A stretch of DNA of 64,000 bases from Dehalococcoidia bacterium (GCA_965219085.1 OZ244720.1:1995429-2059428); one strand, 5' to 3'; positions 4,580-21,596 are shown, counted from the stretch's first letter. Made by a program: numbers and translations. The notes: generated by a model not told the origin, from the sequence alone.

Positions 4580-5596
4580 TTGGCCCATCTATATGCTGGT
4601 CGCGCGCACGCGATGCTGGCCCCGGCCAGAGAGGACCGCATGACGCTCGACTTTGCGACTGCCCGGCTGCTGATGCAGATGGCGGAAGCCGGCGGCACGC
4701 CGCTGCACGAGAGCACGCCCGCGGAGGCGCGCGCGCTCGGGCGCGCGCTCATGGAGCTCAACGGCCCGGCGCCACCGATGCTTCGCGTCGACGAGCACAG
4801 CCTCGCCAGGCCGGACGGCACGGTCCCGATCCGCGTGTTGGCGCCGCTGGAGCAGCCGGCCGGCGTGATCGTCTACTACCACGGTGGCGGCTGGGTCATC
4901 GGTTCGATCGACGAGTCAGACACCGTGGCGCGCAAGCTCGCCGAGCGCACGTCGTGCACGGTGGTGCTCGTCGGCTACCGGCTCGCGCCCGAGCACCGCT
5001 ACCCAGTGGCGGTCGACGACTCGTACGCGGCGCTGGAGTGGGTCGGCGAGCACGTCGATGAGCTGGCAAGGCCGGGCGCTCCACTGTTTGTCGCTGGTGA
5101 CAGCGCCGGCGGCAACCTCGCGGCCGTGATGGCGCTGCGAGCGCGCGATCGCCGAGGCCCGCCGATCGCGGCGCAGATCCTGATCTACCCGGTCACCGAC
5201 GCCGACTTCGAGCGTCCGTCGTACACCGATCCCGGGAACCAGCTACTGCTGACGCGCGAGGCCATGGCCTGGTTCTGGGATCACTACGTCCCGGACGCCG
5301 CGCGACGCGTCGAGCCCGACGCCTCGCCGCTGCGCGCCGCCGACCTCGCCGGGCTGCCACCGGCGGTCGTGCTGACCGCCGAGCACGACGTGCTGCGCGA
5401 CGAGGGCGAAGCCTACGCCGAGCGGCTCGAGGCGGCCGGAGTGCCGGTCAACCTCCAGCGCCACGAGGGTCAGACACACGGCTTCTTCACGCTGCTGATG
5501 CTACCGGGCAGCGAGCGCGGCTTTCAGCAGGTGGTAAAGGCCGTGCGCGCGACGATCGCCGAGCGTGCGAGGGAGGCCGCGAACGCGACGCCGTAA
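4580..5596 (+). CDS. alpha/beta-hydrolase esterase/lipase (HSL family, Aes-like)
   Basis: HGGG oxyanion motif (VIVYYHGGGWVIGS) and nucleophile elbow GDSAGG; the true start may be the internal Met near 4640. Confidence 0.8.
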   Translation: MAHLYAGRAHAMLAPAREDRMTLDFATARLLMQMAEAGGTPLHESTPAEARALGRALMELNGPAPPMLRVDEHSLARPDGTVPIRVLAPLEQPAGVIVYYHGGGWVIGSIDESDTVARKLAERTSCTVVLVGYRLAPEHRYPVAVDDSYAALEWVGEHVDELARPGAPLFVAGDSAGGNLAAVMALRARDRRGPPIAAQILIYPVTDADFERPSYTDPGNQLLLTREAMAWFWDHYVPDAARRVEPDASPLRAADLAGLPPAVVLTAEHDVLRDEGEAYAERLEAAGVPVNLQRHEGQTHGFFTLLMLPGSERGFQQVVKAVRATIAERAREAANATP

Positions 5597-5672
5597 CCCA
5601 CGCTTCGCGCGCGAGGCGATAGAGTGTGGCGGGCGCGGCCTCGCGGGCGCCGCTCGACGCGGGAGGATTGAG

Positions 5673-7310
5673 ATGACGACCAACACCAGCCAGTCAGAAC
5701 TCGACGCCGTCGTGGTGGGGGCGGGATTCTCCGGCATGTACATGCTCTACCGGCTGCGCGAAGTGCTCGGCCTGTCCGCGCGCGTGTTCGAGGCGGGGGA
5801 CAACGTCGGCGGTACCTGGTACTGGAACCGCTACCCCGGCGCGCGCTGCGACTCCGAGTCGTACGTCTACTGCTTCTCGTTCGACAAGGACCTCGCCCAG
5901 GAGTGGAACTGGAGCGGCAAGTACCCCGAGCAGCCCGAGATCCTGCGCTACCTCAACCACGTCGCCGATCGGTTCGGCCTCCGCCCCGATATCCAGTTCG
6001 AGACGCGCGTCACCGCCGCGCACTTCCGCGAGGACCTCAACCGCTGGGAGATCGAGACCGACCAGGGCGACCGCGTGCTCGCGCGCTACTTCATCACCGG
6101 GATCGGCTGCCTCTCGGCGGGCCAGATCCCCGACATCGAGGGGCTCGATGGCTTCGAGGGCGACTGGTACCACACCGGCGCGTGGCCCCACGAAGGCGTC
6201 GACCTCGCGGGCAAGCGCGTAGGGGTGGTCGGCACTGGTTCGAGTGGTGTTCAGTCGATCCCGGTGATCGCGAAGCAGGCAGGGCACGTGACTGTCTTCC
6301 AGCGCACGCCGCAGTACATGATCCCGGCCCGCCACGGCACGGTCACGCCCGAGTTCCTCGATGACATCAAGGGCCGCTACGACCAGATCTTCGAGAAGAT
6401 CAAATGGTCGGGCGGTGGCGGCCCCTACGACGTCGTCGACCGCTCGGCCCTCGATGTCGGGGACGAGGAGCGGCGCGCGATCTACGAGGCGGCGTGGGAA
6501 CAGGGCGGGCACCGCTTCCTCAGCGCCACCTTCCACGACATCGCCGCCGACCGGCGGGCCAACGACACGGCCTCCGAGTTCATCCGCTCGAAGATCCGCG
6601 AAATCGTCCGCGACCCCGAGACCGCCGAGAAGCTGGTCCCGCGCGACCACCCGTTCGCGTCGAAGCGCGCGCTGATCGACACCGACTACTACGACACCTA
6701 CAACCGTGACAACGTCGACCTGGTCGACATTCGCCACGACCCGATCGAGGAGATCACGCCGCGCGGCATCCGCACCCAGGATGGCGAGTACGAGCTCGAC
6801 ATCATCGTCTTCGCCACCGGCTACGACGCGATGACCGGCGCGTTCAACCGCATCGACATCCGCGGCCGCGGCGGCGAGCTGCTCCGGGAGAAATGGGCGG
6901 AGGGCCCGAAGACCTACTTGGGGCTGTCCTCGGCGGGCTTCCCCAACATGTTCATGATCACCGGCCCCGGCAGCCCCTCGGTGCTGAGCAACATGCCCGT
7001 CTCGATCGAGCAGCACGTCGAGTGGATCTCGGACTTCGTCGACCACATGCTCGAGCACGGTGTCGAGATCGCCGAGGCGGACGCCGATGCCGAGGCGGAC
7101 TGGGTCGACCACGTCAACGACGCGGCGAGCAAGACGCTCTACCCGCTGGCGGACTCGTGGTACCTGGGCGCCAACATCCCCGGCAAGCCGCGCGTGTTCA
7201 TGCCCTACACGGGCGGGGTCGGCAACTACCGCAAGAAGTGCGACGAGGTCGCCGAGGCCGGCTACGAGGGTTACGTGCTCCACAGCGAGGCGCCCCTCGG
7301 CGTCCGCTGA
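5673..7310 (+). CDS. Baeyer-Villiger (flavin-containing) monooxygenase, cyclohexanone-monooxygenase type
   Basis: ATG at 5673 preceded by GGGAGG; FAD GxGxxG (VVVGAGFSG), BVMO fingerprint FEGDWYHTGAWP, second Rossmann GKRVGVVGTGSSG; the ORF-track entry 5565..7310 starts upstream at a GTG. Confidence 0.85.
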   Translation: MTTNTSQSELDAVVVGAGFSGMYMLYRLREVLGLSARVFEAGDNVGGTWYWNRYPGARCDSESYVYCFSFDKDLAQEWNWSGKYPEQPEILRYLNHVADRFGLRPDIQFETRVTAAHFREDLNRWEIETDQGDRVLARYFITGIGCLSAGQIPDIEGLDGFEGDWYHTGAWPHEGVDLAGKRVGVVGTGSSGVQSIPVIAKQAGHVTVFQRTPQYMIPARHGTVTPEFLDDIKGRYDQIFEKIKWSGGGGPYDVVDRSALDVGDEERRAIYEAAWEQGGHRFLSATFHDIAADRRANDTASEFIRSKIREIVRDPETAEKLVPRDHPFASKRALIDTDYYDTYNRDNVDLVDIRHDPIEEITPRGIRTQDGEYELDIIVFATGYDAMTGAFNRIDIRGRGGELLREKWAEGPKTYLGLSSAGFPNMFMITGPGSPSVLSNMPVSIEQHVEWISDFVDHMLEHGVEIAEADADAEADWVDHVNDAASKTLYPLADSWYLGANIPGKPRVFMPYTGGVGNYRKKCDEVAEAGYEGYVLHSEAPLGVR

Positions 7311-7518
7311 GCCGCCGGGCGCGCTCGCCTGAAGGGGATGCGGGACTCGATATCGAGGGTCCGAAGGCGTTCCCCGAGCATCGCCGCCCGGACGTCATCG
7401 ACGCGTAGCCTCCTGCGCGAGAGTCGGCACGACGACGGCACAGCCTGTTACCGCAGCGAAAGATTTGCGAAACGCGAACGTCACGCCCCTGACACCCGTC
7501 GGTACCCCACGCGTTCAA

Positions 7519-7600
7519 GCTAGCGCCTGCTTGCCCCGCCTGAGCACAGGCGGGTGCACGGCGCGATAACTGCCGGGGAAACCGAGGCCTCCTCGGCCTT
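7519..7600 (+). promoter_or_regulatory. structured leader upstream of the ABC binding-protein gene; weak resemblance to a guanidine-I (ykkC) riboswitch 3' half, followed by a short hairpin
   Basis: CUAG..., then ACGGCGCGAUAACUGCCGGGGAAAC (compare ykkC ACGGCGGGAUAAAAGCCCGGGAGA), then hairpin CCGAGG-CCU-CCUCGG; the 5' conserved blocks are not recognisable. Confidence 0.15.
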
Positions 7601-8336
7601 CTTGTAGGTGGCGCAACGCGCCCCGCCCGCAACGCGGAACCGGAGGAGAGACCCTTGATGTTGACCTGGCCCCACCTGGCGGACCTGCGATTGGTGGCGA
7701 TGCTCGTCGCCGCCGTCGCGCTCTTCGCGGTCGCATGCGGCGGCGACGACGACGACACCACGCCGGCTCCGATCAGGTGATCGTGCTGGTGAAAGACAAC
7801 TCCACCGGCAACGACCAGATCATCGCCACCGCGGACATCCAGTCGATCGAGGATCTCGGCGGCACGACGATCGGCGTTGAGGTCGGCGTTGTCGACCACT
7901 TCCTCCTGCTGCTCGGCCTCGAGTCCGTCGGGCTCACCGCCGCCGACGTCAACATCGTCAACCTCGAGACCGGCGCGGGGGTGCCGCATTCGCGTCGGGC
8001 CAGCTCGACGCGGTCGGCGTCTTCGCACCGTTTACGGTGCAGGCGCTGATCCGCGAGGGTTCGCACACGCTCTTCACGTCCGCCCTGTTCCCCGGCGCGA
8101 TTCCCGACCAACTCGTGCTCTCGCGCGAGATCGTCGACTCGCGACCGGAGGACGTGCAGAAGATCATCGAGGCCTGGTTCAAGACCCTCGAATGCATCGA
8201 GGCGAATCCGGCGGACGCGGTCGCCATCATGGCCAGGCGCGCGGGCGTCACGGCCGAGGAATACGCAGAGTACGACTGACCTGACCCCTTGAAACGGGAC
8301 CACCGTTGATGAGAGTCCTTTGGCCCATGAAAGTGG

Positions 8337-8633
8337 GTGGAGGAGGACATCACGGTGAAACGACGCAGGCACACGCCTGAGCAGATCGTGCGCAAGCTGC
8401 GCGAGGTGGAGCGGCTGCTCGGCGAAGGGCAGACGATCGCCGAGGCGGCGAAGCGGGTCGAGGTCTCGGAGCAGACCTACCACCGCTGGCGCAACCAGTA
8501 CGGCGGGATGAAGGCCGACGACGCCAAACGGCTGCGCGAGCTGGAGCGCGAGAACGTCCGGCTGAAGCGGATCGTCGCCGACAAGGAACTCGAGATCGAC
8601 GCGCTCAAGGAGATCGCCCGGGGAAACTGGTAA
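8337..8633 (+). CDS. IS3-family transposase OrfA (HTH)
   Basis: 98 aa, ..RRRHTPEQIVRKLREVERLLGEGQTIAEAAKRVEVSEQTYHRWRNQYGG.. with leucine-zipper tail, typical of IS3 OrfA. Confidence 0.9.
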   Translation: MEEDITVKRRRHTPEQIVRKLREVERLLGEGQTIAEAAKRVEVSEQTYHRWRNQYGGMKADDAKRLRELERENVRLKRIVADKELEIDALKEIARGNW

Positions 8634-8662
8634 GCCCGTCGCGCCGGCGCGAGGCAGTCTGC

Positions 8663-9487
8663 ATGTTGCAGGACCGCCTCGAGTTGTCGGAACGGCGGGC
8701 ATGCCGGGTCACCGGCCAGCACCGCTCCACACAGCGCCGCCTCCCGGTGCGCGGCCGCGGCGACGACGCGCTGCGCGCGGAACTCCACGCCTTCTCGCGT
8801 GGCCACCCCCGCTGGGGGTACCGCCGGGCCTGGGCGACCTTACGCGAGGAGGGCTGGGGCGTGAATCGCAAGCGGGTGCAACGGCTCTGGCGTGAGGAAG
8901 GGCTGCGCGTCCCGGTGAAACGGCGCAAGCGTCAGCGCCTGGGGGACTCGGCGGTGCCCGCCGCCAGGCTGCGCGCTGAGCGGCCGAACCACGTCTGGGC
9001 GCTGGACTTCCAGTTCGACCAGACCGCGGACGGGCGGGTCCTGAAGCTGCTCAACATCGTCGACGAGCACACACGGGAGGCGCTGGCGATCGTGGCCGCC
9101 AGGCGCATCAACGCCGACGCCACGGCCTCAACGCTCGACGGGATCGTCGCCCGGCGCGGGACGGCGCCTGGGTACATCCGTTGCGACAATGGGCCCGAGC
9201 TCACGGCCAACGCGCTGCGCGACTGGTGCCGGTTCAGCGGTACGGGCAGCAGCTACATCGAGCCCGGTGCGCCGTGGGAGAACCCGTACGTCGAGTCGTT
9301 CAACGGCCGGTTGCGCGACGAGTTCCTGGCGGTCGAGCAGTTCGACAGCCTGCTCGAGGCGCAGGTGCTGCTCGAGGACTGGCGGATCGAGTACAACACG
9401 AAGCGCCCGCATAGCAGCCTGGGCTGGCTCGCCCCGGCTGCCTACGCCGAGCGCTGGGAGACTCAGCTACACGCTGGACTCTCATAA
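8663..9487 (+). CDS. IS3-family transposase OrfB (DDE integrase core, rve)
   Basis: 274 aa with the integrase catalytic core (..HVWALDFQF.., ..YIRCDNGPELT.., ..SFNGRLRDEFL..); probably expressed as an OrfAB fusion by -1 frameshifting. Confidence 0.9.
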   Translation: MLQDRLELSERRACRVTGQHRSTQRRLPVRGRGDDALRAELHAFSRGHPRWGYRRAWATLREEGWGVNRKRVQRLWREEGLRVPVKRRKRQRLGDSAVPAARLRAERPNHVWALDFQFDQTADGRVLKLLNIVDEHTREALAIVAARRINADATASTLDGIVARRGTAPGYIRCDNGPELTANALRDWCRFSGTGSSYIEPGAPWENPYVESFNGRLRDEFLAVEQFDSLLEAQVLLEDWRIEYNTKRPHSSLGWLAPAAYAERWETQLHAGLS

Positions 9488-9799
9488 GCGGTGGACTCGC
9501 GAAGGGGGTCCGGTCACGACGCCGGCGCCACGATCTTCACGGCTGCGCAGAACCTCACGGCGTTCGAGGCCGGCGACGACTTCACGAGCCTGCAGTTCGT
9601 GGCCGACCAGATCGTCCCGTTCCTGATCGATGCCGAGTTCATCGAGGCGGAGCCGGATCTGTCGGGGCTCTTCGATCCGTCGTTCGTCGAGACCTACGTG
9701 TCGGCGAACTAACGGGTCTCGCAGGAAGTGGCTAAACCCGAATACACCGATCGAGGCTTGAGGGGGCGGGATGCCGGTATGCCGGAGAGTTCGGCAGGT

Positions 9800-11350
9800 G
9801 TGTCGGTGTTCGCCGGGCGGTGCCGGAGCGAGCAGGCGCAGCTCGGGGGCGCTGAGGGCGCGGGCGCAAGGCGTGCGCGGGCATGCTGGCGCGAGCCTCG
9901 GAGGGGGGCCGGCGCTGTGAGCGGTCGTCAGGCCGGGAGCGGTAACGCCCGTAGTCGCGCGAGCGCGGCTGCCAGCTGCCCGGCCCAGGGCCAGCGCCTG
10001 GGGAGGTGCAGGGTCCAGCGCCGGGCCGAGTGGGTGAGCCGTCCGGCGAGGGCGAAATAGCGCCGCCTGAGCGTCCTGGTGGTGACGATTCCCTCGCCGA
10101 GCCCGAGCCGTGCCGTCCAGCGGGCGAGGTTGTGCGCGATCACCTGCACCGCGAGCCATGCCGCGTTCGCGGCGAAGCGGCCCGAGGGGAGATGGTTGAG
10201 CCCGACGCCGTACTTGAGATCGCGGATCGCGTTCTCGATCTCGGCGTGGCGACGATGGTCGGTCTCGAGCTCCATCATCTCCCCCGAGCGGTCGGTGATG
10301 AAGGCGTGGTAGCTGTACGTCGCGAAGAGCGCCAGCTGTGAGCCGGGCGCCGGCTTCACGCGCCGCACGATGAGCCGCACCGCGCTGGCGTCCCTCGTGT
10401 GCCGGAACGGGGTGTAGGTCGTCTCGGCGACATCGGCGCCGCCCGGCAGCCAGTACGGGATCGGCGTCCAGTCCTCTTGCGGTATCGCCTCGATCAGCCT
10501 ACGCACGCTCGGCTGCTGGCGGATCGTGACCGAGAAGCGGACATCCTGCTTGCGGCAGACGGCGACGACCGCGTGGTTGTAGAAGCCGCTGTCGGCGCGC
10601 ACCGTGAGCTGCCCGCTCGCCCCGGCGTCGCGGACCCGCGCCACCGTCTCACGCAGGAAGTGTGCGGCGCCGCGGGCGGTGTTGGCGCGGCCCTCGCGCA
10701 GCCGCGCCATCAGCACGTCACCCGTCCCGGCCGCAACGGCGAGCAGCGGGTGGTAGCCGCGCGCGCCCGTGTAGCCGTGGTGCCGGGCGCCCTCCTTCGC
10801 CAAGCCGTAGGTCTCGCAGATCGTCGAGTCGAGGTCGATCGTGAACGGCGCGTCGCCGGGTCCCGCCCCGGCCGCCCAGCCGCGAGCGAGCAACTCGCGG
10901 CTGACGCGGTCGAGCTGGCGGACGTGGCCCCAGCGGAAGCTGCGCAGGAACGTGCCCAGGGTGGACGGCGCCTTGACCGTGCAAGCCAGCACGCTCGCCG
11001 TCCCGCCGGCGCGCAACGCATCGGCGTCGTCGATGCAGTCACCGCCCGCGAGCGCCGAGGCGATGAGGGTCAGCAGCTTGTCGCCGGCGTTCGCCCGGCC
11101 CGGCGCGTCACCGAGGTCGACGCAGCTGTCGGCGAGCTCTTGCAGACCGAGATGCTGGGCGAGCGTGGCCGGGAGCAGCAGGCCCGCGTGGTCCACGAGG
11201 CGGTCGTCATCGAAGGCGATGTCTATCCGGTCGGGGTCGCTCGTTGGTAGCATCGAATGGGTGCTCCCTGTGGCTGTGACGTGATTCGGCAAAACCCATT
11301 GTCCCAGCTACAGCGGAGCACCCAACCGCAGCCCCTAGCGCGCTCTTCTT
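9800..11350 (-). mobile_element. second insertion sequence, IS1380/IS4-like (boundaries approximate)
   Basis: Contains a single 454-aa DDE transposase ORF between the binding-protein remnant and the permease gene; ends and target duplication could not be fixed by eye. Confidence 0.55.
9928..11292 (-). CDS. DDE transposase, IS1380-family-like
   Basis: 454 aa; size and organisation typical of IS1380/IS4-type transposases (..TIDLDSTICETYG.., ..HPLLAVAAGTGDVL..). Confidence 0.7.
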   Translation of the reverse strand: MPNHVTATGSTHSMLPTSDPDRIDIAFDDDRLVDHAGLLLPATLAQHLGLQELADSCVDLGDAPGRANAGDKLLTLIASALAGGDCIDDADALRAGGTASVLACTVKAPSTLGTFLRSFRWGHVRQLDRVSRELLARGWAAGAGPGDAPFTIDLDSTICETYGLAKEGARHHGYTGARGYHPLLAVAAGTGDVLMARLREGRANTARGAAHFLRETVARVRDAGASGQLTVRADSGFYNHAVVAVCRKQDVRFSVTIRQQPSVRRLIEAIPQEDWTPIPYWLPGGADVAETTYTPFRHTRDASAVRLIVRRVKPAPGSQLALFATYSYHAFITDRSGEMMELETDHRRHAEIENAIRDLKYGVGLNHLPSGRFAANAAWLAVQVIAHNLARWTARLGLGEGIVTTRTLRRRYFALAGRLTHSARRWTLHLPRRWPWAGQLAAALARLRALPLPA

Positions 11351-11478
11351 CGGTGGATCAGGGCTAAAGCAGGCAAGGGGGCGGCCATGCGCGACAGCAC
11401 CGGCGCGCCCCAGGCGGAGTTGCCGCCCGTCGCCTGTGGACCACGCCGCCACGGGCCGGCACGCCCGGCGGCCGGCTC

Positions 11479-12267
11479 ATGGTCGGCCGCCGGCCGAGCT
11501 GGTTCTGGCGCATCCGCGAGGACATCTCGCCCACGCTCCGGATCGCGCTCGCATCGGCCTCGGTGACGGCGCCGCTGGCGGTCTGGATCATCCTCGTCGC
11601 GAACCACGCGGTGAACCCGATCTTCCTGCCGAATCCGCTCGACGTGCTGGGCTCGCTGCGAGACCTGTTTACCGAGGGGCTGCCGCTCTCGGACGCTCGA
11701 GCCAGCCTCCAGCGCGTCGCGATCGGCTTCGGGATCTCGCTGCCACTCGGCCTCGCGATGGGGACGTTCAAGAGCATGGAGGCGCTGTTCGAGCCGGTGA
11801 TCGGCCTGTTGCGCTACATGCCCGCGCCGGCATTCGTGCCGCTGCTCATCATCTGGTTCGGCTTCGCCGAGACGCCGAAGGTCGCGCTGATCCTCATCGG
11901 CACGATGTTCTTCAACACCCTGATGATCGCGAACGTCGTCTGGCAGGTACCGACCGATCTGATCCGGGTGGCGCTGACGCTGGGCGCGAGCAACGTGGCG
12001 GTCTTCACGAAGGTGATCTTCCCGCACAGCGTGCCCGGTGCGATCGATGCGGCGCGTGTGAACCTCGCCGCGGCGTGGAACCTGATCGTCGTGGCCGAGC
12101 TCTTCGCCGCCGACGAAGGCCTCGGTTACCGCATCGTCCGCTCCCAGAAGTTCCTGCACATCGACACCATCTTCGCGGTGCTGATCGTGATCGGGATTCT
12201 CGGCCTCACCAGCGATCTGCTGCTTCGCACCGCGCGCAACCGCCTCGCGCCGTGGTCACAGGAGTAG
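11479..12267 (+). CDS. ABC transporter permease, NitT/TauT family (SsuC-like)
   Basis: 262 aa, six transmembrane segments, EAA-like loop (..GASNVAVFTKVIFPHSVPG..). Confidence 0.85.
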   Translation: MVGRRPSWFWRIREDISPTLRIALASASVTAPLAVWIILVANHAVNPIFLPNPLDVLGSLRDLFTEGLPLSDARASLQRVAIGFGISLPLGLAMGTFKSMEALFEPVIGLLRYMPAPAFVPLLIIWFGFAETPKVALILIGTMFFNTLMIANVVWQVPTDLIRVALTLGASNVAVFTKVIFPHSVPGAIDAARVNLAAAWNLIVVAELFAADEGLGYRIVRSQKFLHIDTIFAVLIVIGILGLTSDLLLRTARNRLAPWSQE

Positions 12268-12273
12268 ACGGCC

Positions 12274-13056
12274 ATGGTCGCTCGGCACACAGCGTTGCAG
12301 ACCCGAGGGCTCACCAAGCCGTTCCCCGGCCGCGGCGGCGAATCGACCGTCGCGCTCGAGGACATCGACCTCCACGTGGAACGGGGCGAGTTCGTATGCC
12401 TCGACGGCGCCTCCGGCTGCGGCAAGTCCACGCTGCTGAATATCATCGCCGGTCTGATTGAGCCCTCCGAGGGCGAGGCGCTGCTCGATGGCCTGCCGAT
12501 TGGCGGACCCAGCCCGAACCGCGGGCTGGTCTCGCAGGGCTACTCGCTGCTTCCCTGGCGGACCGTCGCCAAGAACGTCGCGTTCGGCCTCGAGCTCTCG
12601 GGCTGGAGCAAGGCGGAGCGAGCGGAGCGCGTCGACTACCTCCTTGGGGTCATGCAACTCACGAAATGGGCCGACTCCCGGCCCAGCGCGCTCTCGGGCG
12701 GGATGCGGCAGCGTGTCGCCATCGCGCGTTCGCTCGCCCCCCAACCCGAGGTGCTGCTGCTGGACGAGCCGTTCGGCGCGCTGGACGCGCACACGCGGAT
12801 GCTGATGCAGGAGTTCCTGCCGGACATCTGGCGCGAGACCGGCACCACCGTGCTGATGGTCACGCACGATGTCGAAGAGGCATTGTTCCTCGCGCAGCGG
12901 ATCTACGTGCTGTCCTCGCACCCCGGTCGCGTGAAGCGCGAGATCGTGCTGCCCTTCGGCGATAACCGTTCGCAGCAGTTGCGACGGCAAGAGGACTTCC
13001 TGGACCTGCGCGACGAGGTGCATGCGTTGCTCTTCGCCGAGGTCTCCGAGGTCTAG
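12274..13056 (+). CDS. ABC transporter ATP-binding protein, NitT/TauT family (SsuB/TauB-like)
   Basis: Walker A GASGCGKST, signature LSGGMRQRVAIARSL, Walker B LLLDEPFGALD. Confidence 0.9.
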   Translation: MVARHTALQTRGLTKPFPGRGGESTVALEDIDLHVERGEFVCLDGASGCGKSTLLNIIAGLIEPSEGEALLDGLPIGGPSPNRGLVSQGYSLLPWRTVAKNVAFGLELSGWSKAERAERVDYLLGVMQLTKWADSRPSALSGGMRQRVAIARSLAPQPEVLLLDEPFGALDAHTRMLMQEFLPDIWRETGTTVLMVTHDVEEALFLAQRIYVLSSHPGRVKREIVLPFGDNRSQQLRRQEDFLDLRDEVHALLFAEVSEV

Positions 13057-13138
13057 GCGTCATGCCCGGTATCGAACCCCGCTGAAAGGACCCTCGTGAC
13101 CCAGCCGCCGTTCCCACTCGCACGAATACCGCGGTGAA

Positions 13139-14251
13139 GTGCCGCTCCACGACCATTACGGCCCCGAGGCGCGCTACGCTGCCGAGGCCGAGGCGCTGAT
13201 TCCGCAGACCGCCTGCGAGCGCGAGATCGCGTGCGGCCTCGAGCTCGGCCCGCAGGGCGCCGGCTCGATCGTCGATCGGTCGATCCCGACGTTCAGCCGC
13301 GGCGAGCTGCCCCACTTCGCGGGTATCAACACCTTCCTCAAGGCCCCCTACCGCGAGGATGTGCGCGAGTGCCGCGCGTACGACGTATCGATCCTCGGCG
13401 CCCCGTACGACGGCGGCGCCACGTACCGCCCGGGCACGCGTTTCGGCCCCCAGGGTATCCGCAAGATCTCCGCGCTCTACGGTCCGTACTCGTTCGAACT
13501 CGGCGTCGACCTGCGCGAGTCGATCACGATCTGCGACGTCGGCGACATCTTCACCATCCCGGCGAACATCGAGAAGACGTTCGACCAGATCAGCAAGGCC
13601 GTCGGTCACGTCTACGCGAGCGGCTCCTTCCCGATCGTGCCCGGCGGCGATCACTCGATCGGCTACCCGACGGTGCGCGCCGTCGCGGAGCACCTCGACG
13701 GCGGCAACCTCGGGATCATCCACTTCGACCGCCACGTTGACACGCAGGAGACCGACCTCGACGAGCGGATGCACACCACACCCTGGTTCCAGGCGACGGA
13801 CATCCCGAACGTGCCGGCGAAGAACCTCGTCCAGATCGGCATCGGCGGCTGGCAGGCGCCGCGCCCCGGCGTGAAGGTCGGCCGCGAGCGCGGCACGACG
13901 ATCATGACCGTCACCGACTGCGTCGAGATGGGCATCGAGGACGCCGCCGCGCGCGCCCTTGAGGTGGCATGGGACGGCGCCGACGCCGTCTGGCTCTCCT
14001 TCGATGTCGACTGCCTGGACGCGGCCTTCGTGCCCGGCACGGGCTGGCCCGAGCCGGGAGGCTTCCTGCCTCGCGAGGTGCTGAAGTTCATCCAGCTGAT
14101 CTCGGAGCGCCCGCTCGCCGGGATGGAGGTTGTGGAGTGCTCGCCCCCCTACGACACCGCCGAGATCACCGCACTGATCGCCACGCGCGTGATCTGCGAC
14201 ACGCTGGGCCGCCAGGTGCGCGCGGGGCACCTGCCGCGGCGGGGGGCGTAG
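13139..14251 (+). CDS. arginase/agmatinase-family ureohydrolase with an N-terminal extension of about 60 aa (candidate guanidine hydrolase; alternatively agmatinase or guanidinobutyrase)
   Basis: 370 aa; Mn/Ni-binding motifs [15 protein letters not shown] and SFDVDCLD; GTG start; lies directly between the NitT/TauT transporter genes and ureA. Confidence 0.75.
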
Positions 14252-14255
14252 CGCC

Positions 14256-14556
14256 ATGCGACTGACACCTCGCGAGCAGGATGCGCTGATGATCTACGTC
14301 GCCGCCGACCTCGCCCGGAAGCGGCGCGCGCGGCCTGCGCCTCAACTACCCCGAGTCCGTGGCGCTGATCAGCGAGGCCATGATGGAGGCCGCACGCGAC
14401 GGCACGGCGGTCACCGAGGCCGCCGTGCGGGGCGCCCAGGTGCTCGGCATCGAGGACGTGATGGAAGGCATCCCCGAGATGGTCACCCTCGTACAGGTGG
14501 AGGCGACGTTCCCGGACGGAACGAAGCTCGTCTCCTGCCACGATCCGATCCGCTGA
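14256..14556 (+). pseudogene. ureA: urease gamma subunit (ureA) with a 1-bp frameshift
   Basis: [25 protein letters not shown] then frame switch to [43 protein letters not shown]; the indel lies near 14335 in GCGGCGCGCGCGG. Confidence 0.75.
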
Positions 14557-14936
14557 TGGCGGACCACGCACGCTACCTCGTCGAGGACGGCGACCTCGAG
14601 ATCAACGCCGGACGCCCGACGGTCACGCTGGCGGTCGCGAACTCCGGCGACCGCCCGATCCAGGTGGGATCGCACGCGCACTTCTTCGAGGTGAACCGCG
14701 CACTCCGCCTCGACCGCGCCGCCGCATTCGGGATGCGACTCGACATTCCCGCCGGCACGGCGGTTCGGTTCGAGCCGGGTCAGCAGCAGACCGTCACGCT
14801 CGTCGCCTTCGGCGGCGCACGACGGGCGCACGGCATGAACGCGCTTGTCGAAGGCTCCACCGACAGCGCCGACGTGCGCGCCGCCGCGCTCGCCCGCCTC
14901 GAGGAGCGCGGATTCAGCTCGGAGGCCCCGCGATGA
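14555..14936 (+). CDS. ureB: urease beta subunit
   Basis: ATG overlaps the ureA stop (TGATG); [54 protein letters not shown].. Confidence 0.85.
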
Positions 14937-16650
14937 GCCGCATCTCCCGCGAGCGCTACGCCGCGCTCTACGGCCCCACGACCGGCGACCGCTTCCGCCC
15001 CGCCGACACGCAGCTGATCTGGCGCGTCGAGCATGACCACGCCGTACTCGGCGAGGAGGCCGTGTTCGGCGGGGGCAAGACGATCCGCGATGGCATGGCG
15101 CAGGCGCCACGCATGACCGCCGCGGGCGGCAGTCCCGACCTCGTGATCACGAGTGCGCTGATCCTCGATCCCGTGCTCGGCGTGATCAAGGGCGACATCG
15201 TCGTCAAGGATGGGCGGATCGCGGCCATCGGCAAGGCCGGAAAACCCCGACATCATGGACGGCGTCGACCCCGCGCTCGTGATCGGGCCGGGTACCGAGG
15301 TCATCGCCGGCGAGCACATGATCGCGACGCCCGGCGGCGTCGACAGCCACATCCACATGATCGCGCCGCAGCAGGCGTGGGCCGCCCTCTCGAACGGCAT
15401 CACGACGATGCTCGGCGGCGCCGCCGGCCCCGCCGACGGCACGCGCGCCACCACCACCACGCCCGGCCCGTGGAACATCGCGCGCATGCTCGAGGCCGCC
15501 GAGACCATGCCCGTGAACTGGGGCCTCTTCGCGAAGGCGAACGCCTCGGACGTGGCGGCGATCGCCGAGCAGGTCGCGGCCTGCGCGCTCAAGGTCCACG
15601 AGGACTGGGGCTCGTCCCCCGCCGTGATCGACGCCGCGCTCCGCGCCGCGGATGAGTACGACGTGCAGCTGGCGATCCACACCGACACCCTCAACGAGAG
15701 GGGCTTCGTCGAGGACACCATCGCCGCGATCGCGGGCCGCACGATCCACACGTTCCACACCGAGGGCGCGGGCGGCGGTCACGCTCCGGACATCCTCCGC
15801 CTCGCCGGCGAGCCGAACGTGCTCCCTTTGAGCACCAACCCGACTCGCCCCTACACGGTGAACACGCTGGCCGAGCACATGGACATGCTCATGGTCTGCC
15901 ATCACCTCAACCCGCAGGTCCCCGAGGACGTCGCCTTCGCCGACAGCCGCATCCGCCCCGAGACGATGGCCGCCGAGGATGTCGTCCACGACGTGGGCGT
16001 ACTGAGCATGTACTCGTCGGACTCGCAGGCGATGGGCCGCGCCGGCGAGAACTTCACGCGCCTGATCCAGACCGCCGACAAGATGAAGCAGGTGCGCGGC
16101 CCGCTGCCCGAGGACGCCGCGGGCGACGACAACGCCCGCGTCCTCCGCTACATCGCCAAGCTCACCATCAACCCCGCCCGCACCCACGGCATCGCGCACG
16201 AGGTTGGCAGCCTCGAGACCGGCAAGCTCGCCGACATCGTGCTGTGGCCGACGCAGTTCTTCGGTGCGAAGCCCGCGCTCGTCGTCAAGGGCGGCATGAT
16301 CGCGTGGTTCGTGATGGGCGAGCCGAACGCCTCGATCCCGACGGTCGAGCCGGTCATCTACCGCCCGATGTTCGGCGCACACCCCTCCGTGATCCCGGCG
16401 ACCAGCGTCACCTTCCTCAGCTAGGCCACGCTGGATCGCGGCGTGGCCGGGGCGCTCGGCCTGCGGTGTCGCATCGCCGTCAGCAGGAACAATCGTGCGC
16501 TCACCAAGGCCGACATGCTCCGCAATGACGCCCTCCGGGCGATCGATGTCGATCCCGAGACCTACGAGGTGCGCGACGATGGCGAGGTCGTCACCTCGCC
16601 CCCCGCAGAGACCCTCGCGCTGTCCCAGCGCTACTTCCCTGGTCTAGCGA
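14933..16650 (+). pseudogene. ureC: urease alpha subunit (ureC), disrupted: +1 indel near 15236, in-frame TAG at about 16425, and an indel at the ureC/ureF junction
   Basis: N-terminus [21 protein letters not shown]..; GGAAAACCCC gives ..AGKPRHH.. instead of ..AGNPDIMDG..; conserved ..TFLSQAA.. reads TFLS*AT (TAG); C-terminus ..SQRYF then runs into ureF because of CCCT in place of CCT. Confidence 0.8.
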
Positions 16651-17353
16651 TGCCCGCCTCGACCCGCTCGCTGATCGCGCTGCTCCAACTCGCGGATTCC
16701 TCGTTCCCGATGGGCGCGTTCGCCCACTCCTACGGGCTGGAGCAGCTCGTCCGCGACGGCATGGTGCGGGACGCCGCATCGCTCGAGGCCTTCGTCGACT
16801 CGATCGTCTCGCTCCAGCTCGCGCCCGCCGAGGCCCGCGCCGCCGCCTCGGCGTGCCACGCCGCCGCGCTGGGCGGCCTCGAGACTGGTGCTCGCGATCG
16901 ACCACTGCCTCCACGTCACGCGCGCCCCTCGTGAGCTGCGCGACGCGGCGGTCGCCGCCGGCCGCCGGCTGCTCGAGGAGGTCGCCGCGCACGCCGCCGG
17001 CCGCCGCGGCCTTGTGCCCGCGTTCCGCGACGCCGTGCTCGAAGACCGCGCGCCCGGCGCCCACGCCGTCGCGCTCGGCGTGGCGGGCGCGGCCTTCGGC
17101 GTGCCGCCCGAGGACGTTGCCGCCGCCCCGCTCTTCAGCACGGCGAACGCGCTCGTGCAGGCGGCGATGCGCCTGCTCCCGATCTCGCACCGCGACGCGC
17201 AGTCCGTGCTGCACCGCGTTCGCGACGCGATCGCCGACGCCGCGCGCGCGGCCGCCGCGGACGGAACCGCTCGCGTTCACATCGTTCCACCCACTCCGGG
17301 AGATCGCGTCGATGCGCCACGCGAGCGCACCGGTCCGCTTCTTCGCGTCGTAA
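16648..17353 (+). pseudogene. ureF: urease accessory protein UreF with two frameshifts
   Basis: MPASTRSLIALLQLADSSFPMGAFAHSYGLE.. (frame 0), then ..LVLAIDHCLHVTRAPRELRD..FSTANALVQAAMRLLP.. (frame +1), then ..EPLAFTSFHPLREIASMRHASAPVRFFAS* (frame +2, TAA at 17351). Confidence 0.7.
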
Positions 17354-17371
17354 CGCAAGCAATCGGGGCAC

Positions 17372-17397
17372 GCAGCCGAGGCATGCAGCCGAGGCAT
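17372..17397 (+). repeat. perfect 13-bp tandem duplication (GCAGCCGAGGCAT x2) in the ureF-ureG junction
   Basis: Read directly from the sequence, immediately 5' of the ureG ATG. Confidence 0.85.
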
Positions 17398-17409
17398 CGA
17401 GGTCAGACC

Positions 17410-18039
17410 ATGAGCCAGCCCATCACCATCGGCGTCGGCGGCCCCGTCGGCTCCGGCACGTCGCTGCTCGTCGAGCGCATCGTCCCGCCGATGATCGAAC
17501 GTGGCTTCTCGCCGGGCGTCGTGGCCAACGACGTCGTCACCGAGGAGGACGCACTGATCATCCGCCGCGGCCTCGATGGCATCCTCGACCCGGCGCGCAT
17601 CGTCGGCGTCGCGACCGGCGCCTGTCCGCATCAGGCGGTGCGCGAGGACCCATCGCTCAATCTCGCCGCGATCGAGCGTCTCGCGGAGGAGCACCCGGAC
17701 ATCGACCTCGTGTTCATCGAGAGCGGCGGCGACAACCTCACGCTGACCTTCAGCGCGCTGCTGGCGCGGCTCTCGATCTACGTGATGGATGTCGCCGGCG
17801 GCGACAAGACCCCTCGCAAGCGGGGGGCGGGCATGATCCAGTCGGACCTGCTGGTCATCAACAAGACCGATCTCGCGCCATACGTCGGGGTCGACGTCAT
17901 GGAGCGCGACGCCGCGACGTACCGCAGCGGCCCGCTGCTGTTCACCGACTGCCGCCACGGCAGCGGTCTCGTCGAGGTCGCCGACTGGCTTGCCACTTCG
18001 ATCAGCGCGCTCGCCGCTCCGGCTGCCGCCCCGGCGTGA
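17410..18039 (+). CDS. ureG: urease accessory GTPase
   Basis: MSQPITIGVGGPVGSGTSLL (P-loop), ..ESGGDNL.., ..INKTDL..; 209 aa, intact. Confidence 0.9.
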   Translation: MSQPITIGVGGPVGSGTSLLVERIVPPMIERGFSPGVVANDVVTEEDALIIRRGLDGILDPARIVGVATGACPHQAVREDPSLNLAAIERLAEEHPDIDLVFIESGGDNLTLTFSALLARLSIYVMDVAGGDKTPRKRGAGMIQSDLLVINKTDLAPYVGVDVMERDAATYRSGPLLFTDCRHGSGLVEVADWLATSISALAAPAAAPA

Positions 18040-18049
18040 CGCGCGCCTG

Positions 18050-18843
18050 ATGCCCGTCCGCAGCCGGCTGGTCGCGCGCTTCGCTCCGTCGCCGGGTGGA
18101 GCGCCCCGCGCGGTGCGCGCCGACGTTGCGGCGACCACCCCGCTCGAGCTGCGCGGCCCCTTCCCCGCCTCGATCCCCGGTACGCCCCGCGCTACCTCTT
18201 GCTCAACGTCACCGCCGGCATCCTCGACGGCGACGACTACGCGATCGAGGTCTGCGCGGCGCCGGGCACGCGAGTCGGCGTGGAGCCCACATTCGCCGCG
18301 AAGGTGTTCCGCTCACGCGGCGGCGGCGCGGCCTTGCGCACGCGCATCGAGGTCATGCCGGGCGCGGAGCTCCGCTACGACTCGGGCCTGCTGATCCCGC
18401 ATGCGGGAGCGGTCCTCCGTCAGCAAACCGAGATCGTGCTGCACGAATCGGCGCGGGCAAGCTGGAGCGAGTCGCTGTCGTTCGGCCGCCTCTCGCACGA
18501 CGAGCGGTTCCAGTTCAAGCGGATCGAGAACGAGCTGCGAGTCGTCGATCCCGCGGGGCGTGTGCGCTACGAGCGCCGCTCCGACCTCGTCCCGCAACGC
18601 GACCGTGCCGCCCTCGAATCAGCCGTCGGCTGCTTCGGCGCGGTCGGCTCGATGGTCCTGCTGGGCAGGCAGCCCGGCGAGGAGCCCGAACTCCCCGATC
18701 TCTCCGCGCTGCCCGGCGTCTACGCCGGTGCGACGACACTTCCCGACGACCTCGGCACGATCGTCCACGTGCTCGCTGAGTGGCCCGAGCAGATCGAGGC
18801 GGTATTCAGCCTCGCGCGAGCGGCGCGGTGCGCGCAGGTATGA
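18050..18843 (+). pseudogene. ureD: urease accessory protein UreD/UreH with a 1-bp frameshift near 18190
   Basis: MPVRSRLVARFAPSPGGAPRAVRADVAATTPLELRGPFPASIPGTPR then frame switch to YLLLNVTAGILDGDDYAIEV..RIENELRVVDPAGRVRYERR.. Confidence 0.7.
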
Positions 18844-19194
18844 GCGTCGCTGCCCCTCGAGGACCGGGTAGTGACTCCATCAGGAGACGGCGCTGCGGCC
18901 GCGGGCCGAGACTCACAACTCGGACACTGGTATCCGGCCCTCTGGAACCCTTCTGGACCCGGCCGCCATCCAACACCGCCCTGCATGGGGTAGATGTCCC
19001 GCGGCAGCAGGTCTCCAGGCAGAGGATGACACCGGCGCGATTATCTCCCCGCCGCGCTTGCTTCCAGTTGCTACTGATCCAGGCGGGCGGATGCTGTTCA
19101 GCGCTGGATGAGTTGCTGAGCCGATCGGCCACGCCCCAGGCGATTTCGCTACCGAGGCTCGCGGTTCCGCCTTGGGCCGTGCGAGGATCGCCGT

Positions 19195-20025
19195 ATGCCA
19201 CTCGTCGGAGGCAAGGAGCTGCTCGATCGCGCCGAGCGCGGCGGCTACGCCGTAGCCGGGTTCAACGTCTCCAACATCGAGCTCGCCCTCGGCGTCATTG
19301 ACGCCGCCGAGGCGCGGCGCGCGCCGATCCTGCTCCAGTTCAACCCCTCCAACATCGAGCACTTTGGGGGGATCGAGGTCGCCGCGGCAACGGCCCGTGC
19401 CCTCGCCCGGCGCGCCGAGGCACCGATCGCGGTCCACCTCGACCACGGCCCCGACATCACGCTGCTGCGCGCGGCGGGCCACGCCGGCTTTACCTCGCTC
19501 ATGTTCGACGGGTCGACCACGCCCATCGACCGCAATATCACCGACACGCGCGCTGCGGGCGCGCTCGCCATCGAGTACGGCGTGGCGCTCGAAGCCGAGC
19601 TCGGCCACGTCGGCGGCCGCGAACCCGGTGTCGTCAGCTCCGAGTCGATCCTGACCGACCCGACCGCGGCCCGCCGCTTCGTCGACGAGACACAGGTCGA
19701 CTCGCTCGCGATCTCGGTCGGCACCGCGCACGGGCTCGCCGGCATCGTCGACGTGGCGCTCGTGCGCGAGCTGCGCGCGGCGACGCGCGGGTTGCCGCTC
19801 GTGCTGCACGGCGGCTCCGGCGTCGCGCCCAACGCGCTGCGCGACTGCGTGCGAGCAGGGGTGCGCAAGCTCAACGTCAGCACCGAGATCCATGCGGCCT
19901 TCGCACAGGCAGTCGCGGGCGCCGGCGGCTCCGACCCACGCCCGGCGCTGCGCGCCGCCCGCAATGCAGTGGCCGCCGCCGCGTCGCTCCGCATCGACGC
20001 GCTCGGCTCGGCGCTGCGCGGCTGA
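19195..20025 (+). CDS. fba: class II fructose/ketose-bisphosphate aldolase
   Basis: ..GYAVAGFNVSNIE.., HLDHG, SVGTAHG, LVLHGGSG motifs; 276 aa. Confidence 0.85.
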   Translation: MPLVGGKELLDRAERGGYAVAGFNVSNIELALGVIDAAEARRAPILLQFNPSNIEHFGGIEVAAATARALARRAEAPIAVHLDHGPDITLLRAAGHAGFTSLMFDGSTTPIDRNITDTRAAGALAIEYGVALEAELGHVGGREPGVVSSESILTDPTAARRFVDETQVDSLAISVGTAHGLAGIVDVALVRELRAATRGLPLVLHGGSGVAPNALRDCVRAGVRKLNVSTEIHAAFAQAVAGAGGSDPRPALRAARNAVAAAASLRIDALGSALRG

Positions 20026-20086
20026 GGCTTGCCCGTCGCCGCTGCCGCGGGTTTCGGCGCCGGGGTGCGCGGCTATACTCGACGGG

Positions 20087-20880
20087 ATGGCCAGCTCGTA
20101 CCGACCCCAGCGCGGCTTTGCCGACGCATCGGAACGCGATCGCGCCGCCGGGGTCCCCCCGGCGGCCCGACGCCTCGTTCCGCCCATCTACGACCTCTCC
20201 CATGTCGGGCTCGAGGACGTCGACCCCTGGATCCCGCGCCCCGAAGACCGCGCGGCCGGCCGCCCATCGGTCGCTGCCGCGATCTGGCCGTGGGGACTGC
20301 GCGGGCTCGCCGACACCCTCGAGGTGGTCGCGCTCGCGCTGCTCATGTTCATCCTCGTGCGCGGAGTCGCGCAGAACTTCGTTGTCGACGGCGGCTCGAT
20401 GGAGCCCACGTTCAGCAGCGGCCAGATGCTGATCGTCAACAAGCTGGCCTACTCCGAGTTCGACCTTGCCTGGCTGCCGGCCGTCGGCTCCGACGATTGG
20501 CGTCCCTTCGGCGCGCTCGAGATCGGTGACGTGATCGTCTTCGAGTTCCCCGCACGGCCAGGACCGCGACTTCATCAAGCGTGTCGTGGCGCTGCCCGGC
20601 CAGACCGTCGAGGTGCGCGACGCGTTGGTGCTGGTCGACGGGGTCGCGCTGGTGGAGCCGTACCTCAGCGACCTCGCCCGTTACGCGTACGGCCCGGAGA
20701 CCGTGCCGCCCGGCCACGTCTTCGTACTGGGCGACGCGCGCAACAACTCCTACGACTCGCACTCCTGGGGGATGCTCGACCAGGCGTTCATCATCGGCCG
20801 CGTCGAGCTGCGCTACTGGCCGGTGGACCGCGCCGGCATGGTGGGCGGCGAGACGCCCTCGACCGAGGGGGGCGGGCAGG
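20087..20880 (+). pseudogene. lepB: signal peptidase I (LepB) with a +1 indel near 20560 (or a sequencing error)
   Basis: ..DGGSMEPTFSSGQMLIVNKLAY.. then ..IVFEFP, frame switch, ..DRDFIKRVVALPGQTVEVRDALVLVDGV..GDARNNSYDSHSWG..RYWPVDRAGMV; the site is TTCCCCGCACGGCC. Confidence 0.7.
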
Positions 20881-20886
20881 GAGACG

Positions 20887-21484
20887 ATGACCGCCGTGAA
20901 CGACACGCCGAACCCGTCCGTGCTCGATGCCGTGCGCGAGACCGGCGCGCTCCTCGAGGGCCACTTCCAGCTCGCCTCCGGCGTGCATTCGGACCGCTAC
21001 CTGGAGAAGTTCAACCTGCTCCAGTGGCCCGGCCATACCGAGGACGCCTGCCGGGCGCTCGCCGAGGCCGGCGCGCCCGCTCGCACCGAGCACCATCGTC
21101 GGCCCGACCACGGGCGGCGTGATCATCGCGTACGAGGTGGCGCGCCAGCTCGGCCTGCGCGGGATCATCGCCGAACGCAACGCGGACGGCCCCGGACGCC
21201 GTATCCAGCGCGACTTCCGCCTCGAGTCCGGCGAGCGGGTGCTGGTCGTCGACGATGTGCTGACGAGTGGCGGGTCGGTGTTTCGCGACACGATCGAGGC
21301 GGTCCGCATCGCCGGCGGCGATCCGATCGCCGTCGGCGTGCTCGTCGACCGCTCGGCAGGCCGCGTCGCGTTCGAAGGACTACCCCTGTACGCCTCGATG
21401 GTGCTCGACCTCGACACGTACCAGCCGGACGACTGCCCGCTGTGCCGCGACGGCCACCTCACCGTGCCGCTGACAGTGACGTAG
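20887..21484 (+). pseudogene. orotate phosphoribosyltransferase-like protein (PyrE family, C-terminal CPLC motif) with a frameshift near 21075
   Basis: MTAVNDTPNPSVLDAVRETGALLEGHFQLASGVHSDRYLEKFNLLQWPGH.. then frame switch to ..STIVGPTTGGVIIAYEVARQLGLRGIIAERN..VLVVDDVLTSGGS.. Confidence 0.65.
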
Positions 21485-21518
21485 CGGCCTCGATTCCCTC
21501 GACGCCGGGCAACGCAAA

Positions 21519-21547
21519 GCCGCTGCCGTATTGGCAGCGGCTTCGTC
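21519..21547. terminator. bidirectional intrinsic terminator hairpin between the convergent pyrE-like and GNAT genes
   Basis: GCCGCTGCC-GTATT-GGCAGCGGC (perfect 9-bp stem) followed by TTCGTC; a second GC hairpin CCCCGGCTGCAGCCGGGG lies about 15 bp downstream. Confidence 0.6.
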
Positions 21548-21596
21548 GGTGATGACCCCGGCTGCAGCCGGGGCGGGTTGCCGATGTACCCTGGCT

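Follow-up and report, generated by a model that had tools for sequence, protein, structure and literature searches.

In a 64,000-nucleotide (nt) stretch of DNA from a Dehalococcoidia bacterium (GCA_965219085.1 OZ244720.1:1995429-2059428; the whole stretch is referred to here as the window), we identified a region that very probably represents a dead copy of a self-contained module for guanidine assimilation. Behind a leader with the remnant of a guanidine-I riboswitch, it comprises a set of genes (gimABC) for an ABC (ATP-binding cassette) transporter, a guanidinase gene (gdmH) and a urease cluster (ureABCFGD). By homology with enzymes of known function, and in view of the riboswitches at related loci, the intact form of the module, found in the related genome L087, would take up guanidine by means of the importer GimA (lipoprotein substrate-binding protein, SBP), GimB (permease) and GimC (ATPase). 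The nickel enzyme GdmH would then convert guanidine into urea and ammonia, and a second nickel enzyme, urease (UreABC, matured by UreFGD), would split urea into two molecules of ammonia and one of CO2. The corresponding gene set of more distant Chloroflexota and of Actinomycetota is predicted to be turned on by a guanidine-I riboswitch. We infer that the copy in the window is non-functional, because its SBP gene is destroyed and cut off from the other genes by an insertion sequence (IS), the starts of gimB and gdmH are lost, four urease genes are broken and the catalytic lysine of UreG is gone.

An earlier interpretation made from this DNA alone (the sequence-only reading) had proposed a same-strand, tightly spaced locus for the import of guanidine, its hydrolysis to urea and the cleavage of urea by urease. 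All genes indeed lie on the plus strand in the proposed order (Pfam families), and the six urease families (ureA, B, C, F, G and D) follow one another in canonical order (Pfam, NCBIfam; orthologues in L001 and L087). The stop codon of gdmH (TAG, 14249-14251) closely adjoins ureA, whose ATG (14256) follows after 4 nt. The proposed architecture is thus supported by the identity of the enzyme, by riboswitch-linked orthologues of the transporter and by this position of the urease genes. The window has a G+C content of ~70%, and the reading frames were therefore determined from third-position G+C and three-frame translation, while genes were named by their Pfam and NCBIfam matches. The coordinates of all features are given in Table 1.

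Synteny with related genomes extends over the entire module. The block 7412-18853 recurs with ~95% nucleotide identity (blastn) in seven related uncultured Chloroflexota genomes (L001, L002, L083 and L085-L088), which together with the window are referred to below as the clade. Across the clade, gene tables place the module in three different neighbourhoods, i.e. flavin monooxygenase / class II aldolase genes (window, L001, L002, L088), an F420H2-quinone-reductase-like gene / CoA-transferase (L083, L087), and ribD / a xanthine-dehydrogenase-like cluster (L085, L086). The ten genes of L087 all have their full length (354, 297, 260, 384, 100, 126, 572, 233, 211 and 264 amino acids, aa), and near-intact copies are present in L086, L088, L001 and L083. 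The block is less diverged from the relatives (95.0% identity) than its flanks (91.4% and 93.1%). Likewise, in a comparison of substitutions among three genomes, 96 synonymous changes fall in 7284 nt of the locus on the window branch, as against 220 in 7806 nt of flanking sequence. Such a pattern is consistent with exchange of the module among members of the clade and, together with the different neighbourhoods, suggests that it may have been transferred or recombined between closely related genomes. No mobility genes belonging to the shared block 7412-18853 were found.

Table 1. Features of the guanidine-assimilation module and of the elements inserted into it (window coordinates)
Feature	Position	Strand	Basis or lesion
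Whole module (riboswitch-remnant leader, gimABC, gdmH, ureABCFGD)	7412..18853	+	blastn of seven relatives against the window
Leader	about 7412-7657	+	riboswitch remnant
Guanidine-I riboswitch remnant	7510..7606	+	RF00442, 16.7 bits, E=1.5 in a 551-nt search
gimA pseudogene (NMT1/SsuA-type lipoprotein SBP)	7658..9712	+	three-frame translation; alignment to L087 and L088
IS3-family element inside gimA	8277..9512	+	NCBIfam transpos_IS3, 234.6 bits; junctions compared with L001
IS1380-family element, gimA-gimB spacer	9737..11363	-	NCBIfam transpos_IS1380, 334.8 bits; Pfam DDE_Tnp_1_4; junctions
gimB, permease	11387..12267	+	Pfam BPD_transp_1; comparison with relatives
gimC, ATPase, intact, 260 aa	12274..13056	+	Pfam ABC_tran; no indel or stop relative to seven relatives
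gdmH, guanidinase	13096..14251	+	PDB search, alignments, sequence reading
ureA pseudogene	14256..14556	+	-2 at 14324 (codon 23)
ureB, intact, 126 aa	14556..14936	+	Pfam Urease_beta; clean relative to relatives
ureC pseudogene	14933..16647	+	Pfam Amidohydro_1; frameshifts and nonsense codon
ureF pseudogene	16650..17353	+	+1 at 16881 (codon 79); +1 at 17261 (codon 203)
ureG, reading frame open, Walker-A lysine lost	17410..18039	+	sequence comparison; NCBIfam ureG, 207.5 against a cut-off of 204.2
ureD pseudogene	18050..18843	+	-1 at 18185 (codon 46)

Decay of the copy in the window

Lesions were called by comparison with the seven relatives, L087 and L088 serving as the intact references for gimA. 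The window-specific lesions amount to 11 frameshift or nonsense mutations, two IS elements and one deletion of 253 nt. The decay recognised by the sequence-only reading is therefore real, and it is wider than had been claimed: of the five genes regarded as intact, gimC and ureB are clean, whereas gimB and gdmH carry 5' frameshifts and ureG has lost the lysine of its Walker-A motif.

The gene of the binding protein retains its signal peptide, but the 253-nt deletion (at 7760/7761, relative to L087 and L088) removes the W-x-x-W motif, a -1 frameshift follows near 7979, and an IS3-family element has inserted further downstream. This element has the termini TG...CA, is flanked by a 4-bp target duplication (CGAC) and encodes orfA (8331-8633) and, in the -1 frame, orfB (ending at 9487), with the Pfam domains HTH_Tnp_1, rve and rve_3. 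The IS1380-family element, whose transposase gene (9928-11292) specifies 454 aa, is flanked by a 5-bp target duplication (CTAAA) and begins 24 nt past the gimA stop codon. The view that ISs split the SBP gene thus holds for IS3, but not for IS1380, which lies between gimA and gimB. Each of the two elements has a transposase of its family, terminal inverted repeats and a duplicated target site.

Both IS families look active in the clade. The 90%-identity cluster of the IS3 orfB (8663-9487) has a member, P0173 (274 aa), that occurs on 13 contigs, the longest of 3.5 Mb; the exact sequence from the window, P0171, is recorded for a single contig. Close to the module in L085 there is an IS1380 copy with 91.7% identity.

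In gimB, a -1 frameshift at ~11426 (codon 14 of the 297-aa gene starting at 11387) cuts off the native ATG, and a 12-nt in-frame deletion at 11741 has removed the residues LISV; what is left is an open reading frame (ORF) of 262 aa, instead of 297, that starts from an internal ATG (11479). A further candidate lesion, a +1 at 11503, was rejected, as comparison with L087 and three other genomes identified it as a -1 in L001 itself.

The ureohydrolase gene had been described as intact and 370 aa long. The family assignment stands, but the 370 aa are the remainder of a 384-aa gene that natively starts at a GTG (13096). An extra A at 13116 (codon 7) shifts the frame, so that the native frame now ends at a TGA (13135-13137), and the residual ORF begins with a GTG (13139) located 1 nt past this shifted-frame stop. 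A 14-residue N-terminal extension stabilises the hexamer of the Nitrospira inopinata guanidinase, and it is conceivable that a restart at GTG 13139 would give a protein devoid of this extension. In addition, seven alignment columns with a conservation of at least 95% in 84 sequences hold a deviating residue in the window GdmH (V15A, L38P, G79R, T94A, L168P, H218Q and C358R); L001 and L083 show no deviation at such positions.

The lesions of ureA, ureC, ureF and ureD proposed by the sequence-only reading are real, and they are specific to the window in comparison with the seven relatives. Those of ureC comprise a +1 at 15241 (codon 103), a loss of 6 nt at 15582, a nonsense codon (CAG to TAG, 16422-16424, codon 499) and a +1 at 16637 (codon 570). 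In ureG, the Walker-A sequence GSGKS is changed to GSGTS (AAG to ACG at 17458-17460, K17T), and 6 nt are deleted at 17895. The ratio of amino-acid-changing to synonymous substitutions (N:S) in this gene is 9:2 on the window branch and 3:15 on the L001 and L002 branches (p=0.001).

A separate observation concerns the strand opposite to ureC, where every ureC examined gave a match to RF02514, the Helicobacter '5' ureB sRNA' family, with 42-62 bits, i.e. above the gathering score (window 15219-15374, minus strand; L001 11987-12289; L083 12809-13111; L010 12594-12861; L024 6221-6512). In the window the match is truncated, covering model positions 11-165, with the 5' end next to the ureC insertion at 15241. 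Instead of a genuine small RNA, these matches seem to reflect the conserved coding sequence of urease alpha.

The substitutions also bear the mark of decay. In the whole locus, changes found only in the window have an N:S of 47:42, and the seven relatives taken together one of 90:184 (p=0.001); for gdmH separately the values are 12:9 and 10:33 (p=0.011). When the locus is compared with intact flanking genes, the window N:S is 43:43 against 50:103 (p=0.013; three genomes sharing the flanks). About 29 other ORFs of the window contain complete Pfam domains and none is split, so the frameshifts are not evenly spread but cluster at 7.4-23.1 kb. Other split genes flagged in the window by a composition hidden Markov model were discarded, since the Pfam scan showed them to be separate, complete genes.

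The frameshifts run past the module. Single insertions are present in genes for an S26 signal peptidase (20552), a phosphoribosyltransferase (21072) and CtaG (23062), all relative to L001 and L002, the first two also relative to L088. This extension of the frameshift block ~4 kb beyond the module could reflect regional decay or a locally poor consensus. The flanking genes (3383-7310 and 19195-23660) have an N:S of 110:220 on the window branch and 41:162 on the L001 and L002 branches (p=0.001), which hints at generally weaker purifying selection in the lineage of the window.

The most serious alternative, although in our opinion an unlikely one, is that thin local coverage or mixed strains in a long-read metagenome assembly gave rise to the small lesions as errors of assembly or consensus, and that the genes from gdmH to ureD are functional in the organism itself. 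The source is a metagenome contig, 8 of the 12 window-specific 1-2-nt genic indels at 7.4-23.1 kb are insertions, and one contiguous frameshift block includes the S26, phosphoribosyltransferase and CtaG genes as well as the module. Moreover, random substitution errors would likewise raise N:S, and isolated single-base lesions, which may be errors too, occur in the assemblies of relatives (a -1 in ureC of L088 and a -1 in ureA of L002). However, most of the indels lie outside homopolymers, and the number of window-specific synonymous changes (42) is ordinary when compared with L087 (42) and L083 (38). On the window branch, the locus has fewer synonymous changes per site than the flanks (see above). 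Approximately 40 kb of the window is devoid of split genes, and the chance of 13 randomly placed events all falling within 14 of 54 kb of coding sequence is ~2e-8. Finally, IS elements with target duplications, deletions of 253, 12 and 6 nt, and the changes CAG to TAG and AAG to ACG are atypical of such errors.

Several points nevertheless weigh against a dead guanidine module. The locus derives from a 3.3-Mb metagenome-derived contig, and some of the single-base indels could therefore be consensus errors. Long open frames that include potential restart codons persist in both gimB and gdmH, and truncated proteins are therefore possible. The N:S of gdmH is not raised in the coarser three-genome comparison (12:21 against 9:14), and the likeness of GimA to the guanidinium site of its characterised counterpart Sll1080 (see below) is one of residue spacing alone. 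Even if the frameshifts were consensus errors, a module with the IS insertions, the large deletion, the nonsense codon and the loss of the lysine would remain unable to function.

Leader, transporter and guanidinase

The sequence-only reading had pointed to a possible guanidine riboswitch 5' of the locus. This expectation was not borne out: no guanidine riboswitch of any class was found at Rfam gathering scores in the whole window, and the leader contains a remnant whose score of 16.7 bits contrasts with the RF00442 gathering score of 63. The match (7510-7582) is located in the same place as the riboswitch of relatives outside the clade, and a covariance model (R1), which we built from five guanidine-I riboswitches (L003, L006, L010, L024 and L080), gives 12.1 bits for the window leader. 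Alignment to intact riboswitches showed that the remnant keeps the 3' half of the aptamer (ACGGCG.GA...GCC.GGG) and has lost the 5' blocks CTAGGGTTCCG and GGTCCGAGAG. A weak 6-bp terminator-like hairpin (7582-7596) with a T-rich tail follows; L083 has a strong 12-bp terminator hairpin in its leader.

The leader is degenerate (12-18 bits with R1) in all eight genomes of the clade, including those with an intact operon, in which the remnant occupies 7827-7918 (L087) and 7853-7928 (L088). The loss of the aptamer therefore predates the clade. Riboswitch loss was considered as a trigger of the decay in the window, and was ruled out because the remnant is equally degenerate where the genes are intact.

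The assignment of a NitT/TauT-type ABC transporter made by the sequence-only reading is confirmed by the families NMT1, BPD_transp_1 and ABC_tran beside gdmH. A survey with one genome per species yielded at least 588 confirmed gdmH-like stretches, the best 80 of which were kept; homologues of gimABC flank gdmH in about 30 of these 80 loci. In three Chloroflexota (L003, L006 and L010) with the same gene order as the window, a guanidine-I riboswitch (Rfam, 82-86 bits) lies directly 5' of gimA. The GimA orthologue of L006 scores 227 with TIGR01728 (cut-off 163.5), and its second-best NCBIfam match is TIGR03427, a urea-carboxylase-associated SBP. For guanidine, Synechocystis GimA (Sll1080) has a KD of ~97 nM, and W59, W62, D135, F205 and D233 make up the predicted binding site (PMC12704784). 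L006 GimA has W46, W49, D121, F191 and D219, with spacings of 3/72/70/28 as against 3/73/70/28 in Sll1080, a comparison of spacing and not an alignment. Given the riboswitches in front of orthologous gimA genes and the similar residue spacing, the objection that the binding protein may be of the sulfonate/nitrate type therefore does not refute the guanidine assignment, and the transporter of the window is probably a GimABC-type guanidine importer.

Within the clade, the transporter is the most frequently damaged part of the module. L001 and L002 have a gimA without start and signal peptide and a gimB with a -1 frameshift, to which L002 adds a 226-bp deletion in gimB and the -1 at the end of ureA; in L083, gimA has a stop at codon 4 and a deletion joins gimA to gimB. 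The whole transporter is intact in L087 and L088. The possibility that gimA is broken throughout the clade was therefore discarded, given the intact copies among L085-L088.

These observations bear on the idea that in this clade the module had already become a plain urease operon, unresponsive to guanidine, with the transporter and gdmH as mere passengers. It would account for a degenerate aptamer in 8/8 clade genomes, those with intact genes included, and for a transporter that is the most damaged part in relatives (L001, L002, L083, perhaps also L085 and L086). We nevertheless consider it highly improbable, as gdmH is intact in 7/7 relatives, its singleton substitutions there are mostly synonymous (the 10:33 given above), and two genomes retain the full transporter.

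The claim that the 370-aa ureohydrolase is of the GdmH type, and not a SpeB agmatinase, is well supported. Its product belongs to the arginase family (PF00491, 260.7 bits). In a search of the PDB, it matched the guanidinase of N. inopinata (9FEK) with 703 bits (E=8.5e-211, 81% identity) and 7ESR/7OI1, the latter being Synechocystis GdmH, with 557 bits (E=2.1e-166, 66% identity). Other structures of the family scored far lower, with at most 179 bits for proclavaminate amidinohydrolase, followed by 163 for guanidinobutyrase and ~130 for agmatinases. The protein also falls below both NCBIfam agmatinase cut-offs (NF002564, 210.8 against 302; TIGR01230, 160.7 against 174.3). Four residues have been singled out for guanidine catalysis, namely Thr105, His222, Trp313 and Glu344 in N. 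inopinata numbering; all four are kept once the numbering of the PDB sequence is corrected for its +2 offset, as are the metal-binding motifs GGDHS, DRHVD and DVDCLD. The mean column identity of the family across Chloroflexota, Actinomycetota and Nitrospirota is 79%. No arginine decarboxylase was found among the ~40 window ORFs scanned, and together with the guanidinase scores this means that the agmatinase objection does not refute the assignment. By homology, therefore, the encoded enzyme is to be regarded as a true guanidinase, GdmH.

That the enzyme might instead be an agmatinase or guanidino-acid hydrolase (SpeB, guanidinobutyrase), served by an importer of a substituted guanidine or a sulfonate, is suggested by the database label 'agmatinase' for the family and by the match of the SBP to the SsuA_fam subfamily model, but is scarcely credible in view of these scores and cut-offs, the retained signature residues, the guanidine-I riboswitches in front of orthologous operons and the lack of an arginine decarboxylase in the ORFs scanned.

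Linkage of gdmH and urease beyond the clade

Among the best 80 species-level loci, a riboswitch (model R1) is present at 61 and urease genes lie within 10 kb of gdmH at 12, in several phyla. If one 20-kb urease cluster per 5-Mb genome is assumed, the probability of 12/80 arising by chance is ~8e-16. The gene orders are diverse: riboswitch-gimABC-gdmH-ureABCFGD (L010), riboswitch-gdmH-ureABC..G (L080), riboswitch-gdmH-APC-like permease-ureABC..G (L078 and L081), ureABCFG-riboswitch-gdmH-gimABC (Dactylosporangium L017, L021 and L024) and, with no gimABC match, ureABC..G-riboswitch-gdmH (Pseudonocardiales L014 and L015). In L024 and L080, the Rfam guanidine-I riboswitch is directly 5' of gdmH. 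After clustering of ORFs, the APC permease, gimABC and ure genes were the only recurrent real neighbours of gdmH. The APC-like permease gene between gdmH and ureA in two Actinomycetota metagenome-assembled genomes (L078, 11105-12649; L081, 11106-12647) encodes ~513 aa; at the corresponding position, L010 has a 183-aa predicted membrane ORF of unknown family (11148-11699).

In the four model genomes considered in a previous study, the urease sites are not under the control of guanidine riboswitches (PMC11410670), and in model organisms urease is unlinked to gdmH (PMC11410670, PMC12186494). The arrangement in L010, L078, L080 and L081, where all these genes stand behind one guanidine-I riboswitch, would by contrast place urease under riboswitch control.

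The linkage also raises the question of nickel supply. In cyanobacteria, ghaA and ghaB accompany gdmH (PMC12704784), whereas comammox guanidinases have no chaperones nearby and their nickel loading has been called unclear (PMC11410670). In 82 loci, a search by the HypA zinc motif and by relaxed tblastn with UreG/HypB detected no GhaA/GhaB (HypA/HypB-like) genes up to 10 kb from gdmH; apart from UreG, nothing HypB-like was hit. As a tentative idea, to which we give a fairly small chance of being correct, nickel insertion into the guanidinase may be a second task of UreF, UreG and UreD in lineages without GhaA/GhaB. If true, this would explain the repeated joining of gdmH and ureABCFGD (at least four gene orders, in several phyla), and would have a bearing on the N. 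inopinata guanidinase, which has no known nickel chaperone (PMC11410670). Related loci in which urease directly follows a guanidine-I riboswitch and gdmH, without HypA/HypB-like chaperones, make the idea testable.

Outside the module, the window contains a solitary piece of a family III CoA-transferase gene that encodes its C-terminus (2681-3007, minus strand; profile positions 314-366 of 366). This piece adjoins the start, at ~3104, of the synteny with L001, L002 and L088, and is probably a relic of rearrangement. Family III CoA-transferase genes are unusually numerous in the window (at least 6 domains, some as tandem or fused pairs; 24305-26886, 42845-47869 and 53715-54911) and are accompanied by acyl-CoA dehydrogenases (further coordinates 27002-28201 and 49708-51948). 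L083 and L087 encode fused versions of 817-873 aa.

Comparison with known systems

The pathway of importer, GdmH and urease is itself established (2021-2025). What appears to be new is, first, the packaging of the whole pathway in a single transferable module that includes the urease maturation genes but lacks GhaAB, and that is riboswitch-controlled in relatives outside the clade; second, its presence in uncultured Chloroflexota; and third, a graded series of copies from intact to wrecked. No report of a urease-linked gdmH module without GhaAB was found in the literature searched, which excluded Funck et al. 2022. Our results thus extend the guanidinase pathway to uncultured Chloroflexota and indicate that genes for import, guanidinase, urease and urease maturation can travel as a ~11-kb module.

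A close known counterpart is that of Synechocystis sp. PCC 6803, where a guanidine-I riboswitch and NtcA control the cluster gdmH-ghaA-ghaB-gimABC (sll1077-sll1082; Funck et al. 2022, as cited in PMC12186494; PMC12704784). The module shares with it a 66% identical guanidinase, an adjacent NitT/TauT ABC importer, urease as the next step of the pathway and, in the orthologous operons of other Chloroflexota and of Actinomycetota, the guanidine-I riboswitch at the 5' end. It differs in that Synechocystis urease is encoded elsewhere and not under the riboswitch (PMC11410670), whereas in the window ureABCFGD directly follows gdmH; moreover, the transporter genes of the window come first, no GhaA/GhaB is found near gdmH (82 loci) and the riboswitch of the clade is degenerate. 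N. inopinata, with a guanidine-I riboswitch, an APC permease and a guanidinase (Palatinszky et al. 2024, PMC11410670; PDB 9FEK), has the closest characterised enzyme (81%), and the two resemble each other in the 14-residue N-terminal extension, present in the intact 384-aa form, and in the absence of a linked dedicated nickel chaperone. Its importer is an APC permease, its urease is unlinked, and in the window the codon-7 frameshift has severed the extension.

The guanidine carboxylase pathway of the ykkC / guanidine-I regulon (NitT/TauT ABC transporter, urea/guanidine carboxylase, CgdAB and allophanate hydrolase) resembles the module in riboswitch class and type of SBP, but relies on ATP- and biotin-dependent carboxylation instead of two nickel hydrolases; none of its enzymes is encoded in the window.

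Mycobacterium tuberculosis possesses a ureABCFGD urease cluster without ureE. Its gene order and lack of ureE are equal to those of the module, whereas the cluster of the window is located 4 nt behind a guanidinase gene, together with an importer, and is pseudogenised. The urease of Yersinia pestis is naturally inactivated by a frameshift in ureD. Here, too, a nickel enzyme of nitrogen scavenging was lost via small frameshifts; the damage in the window, however, involves multiple genes of a three-step pathway as well as IS insertions, and intact copies survive in relatives. The eight closely related genomes, ranging from intact to wreck, offer a natural series for studying the sequence of events by which a three-step pathway for nitrogen scavenging disappears.

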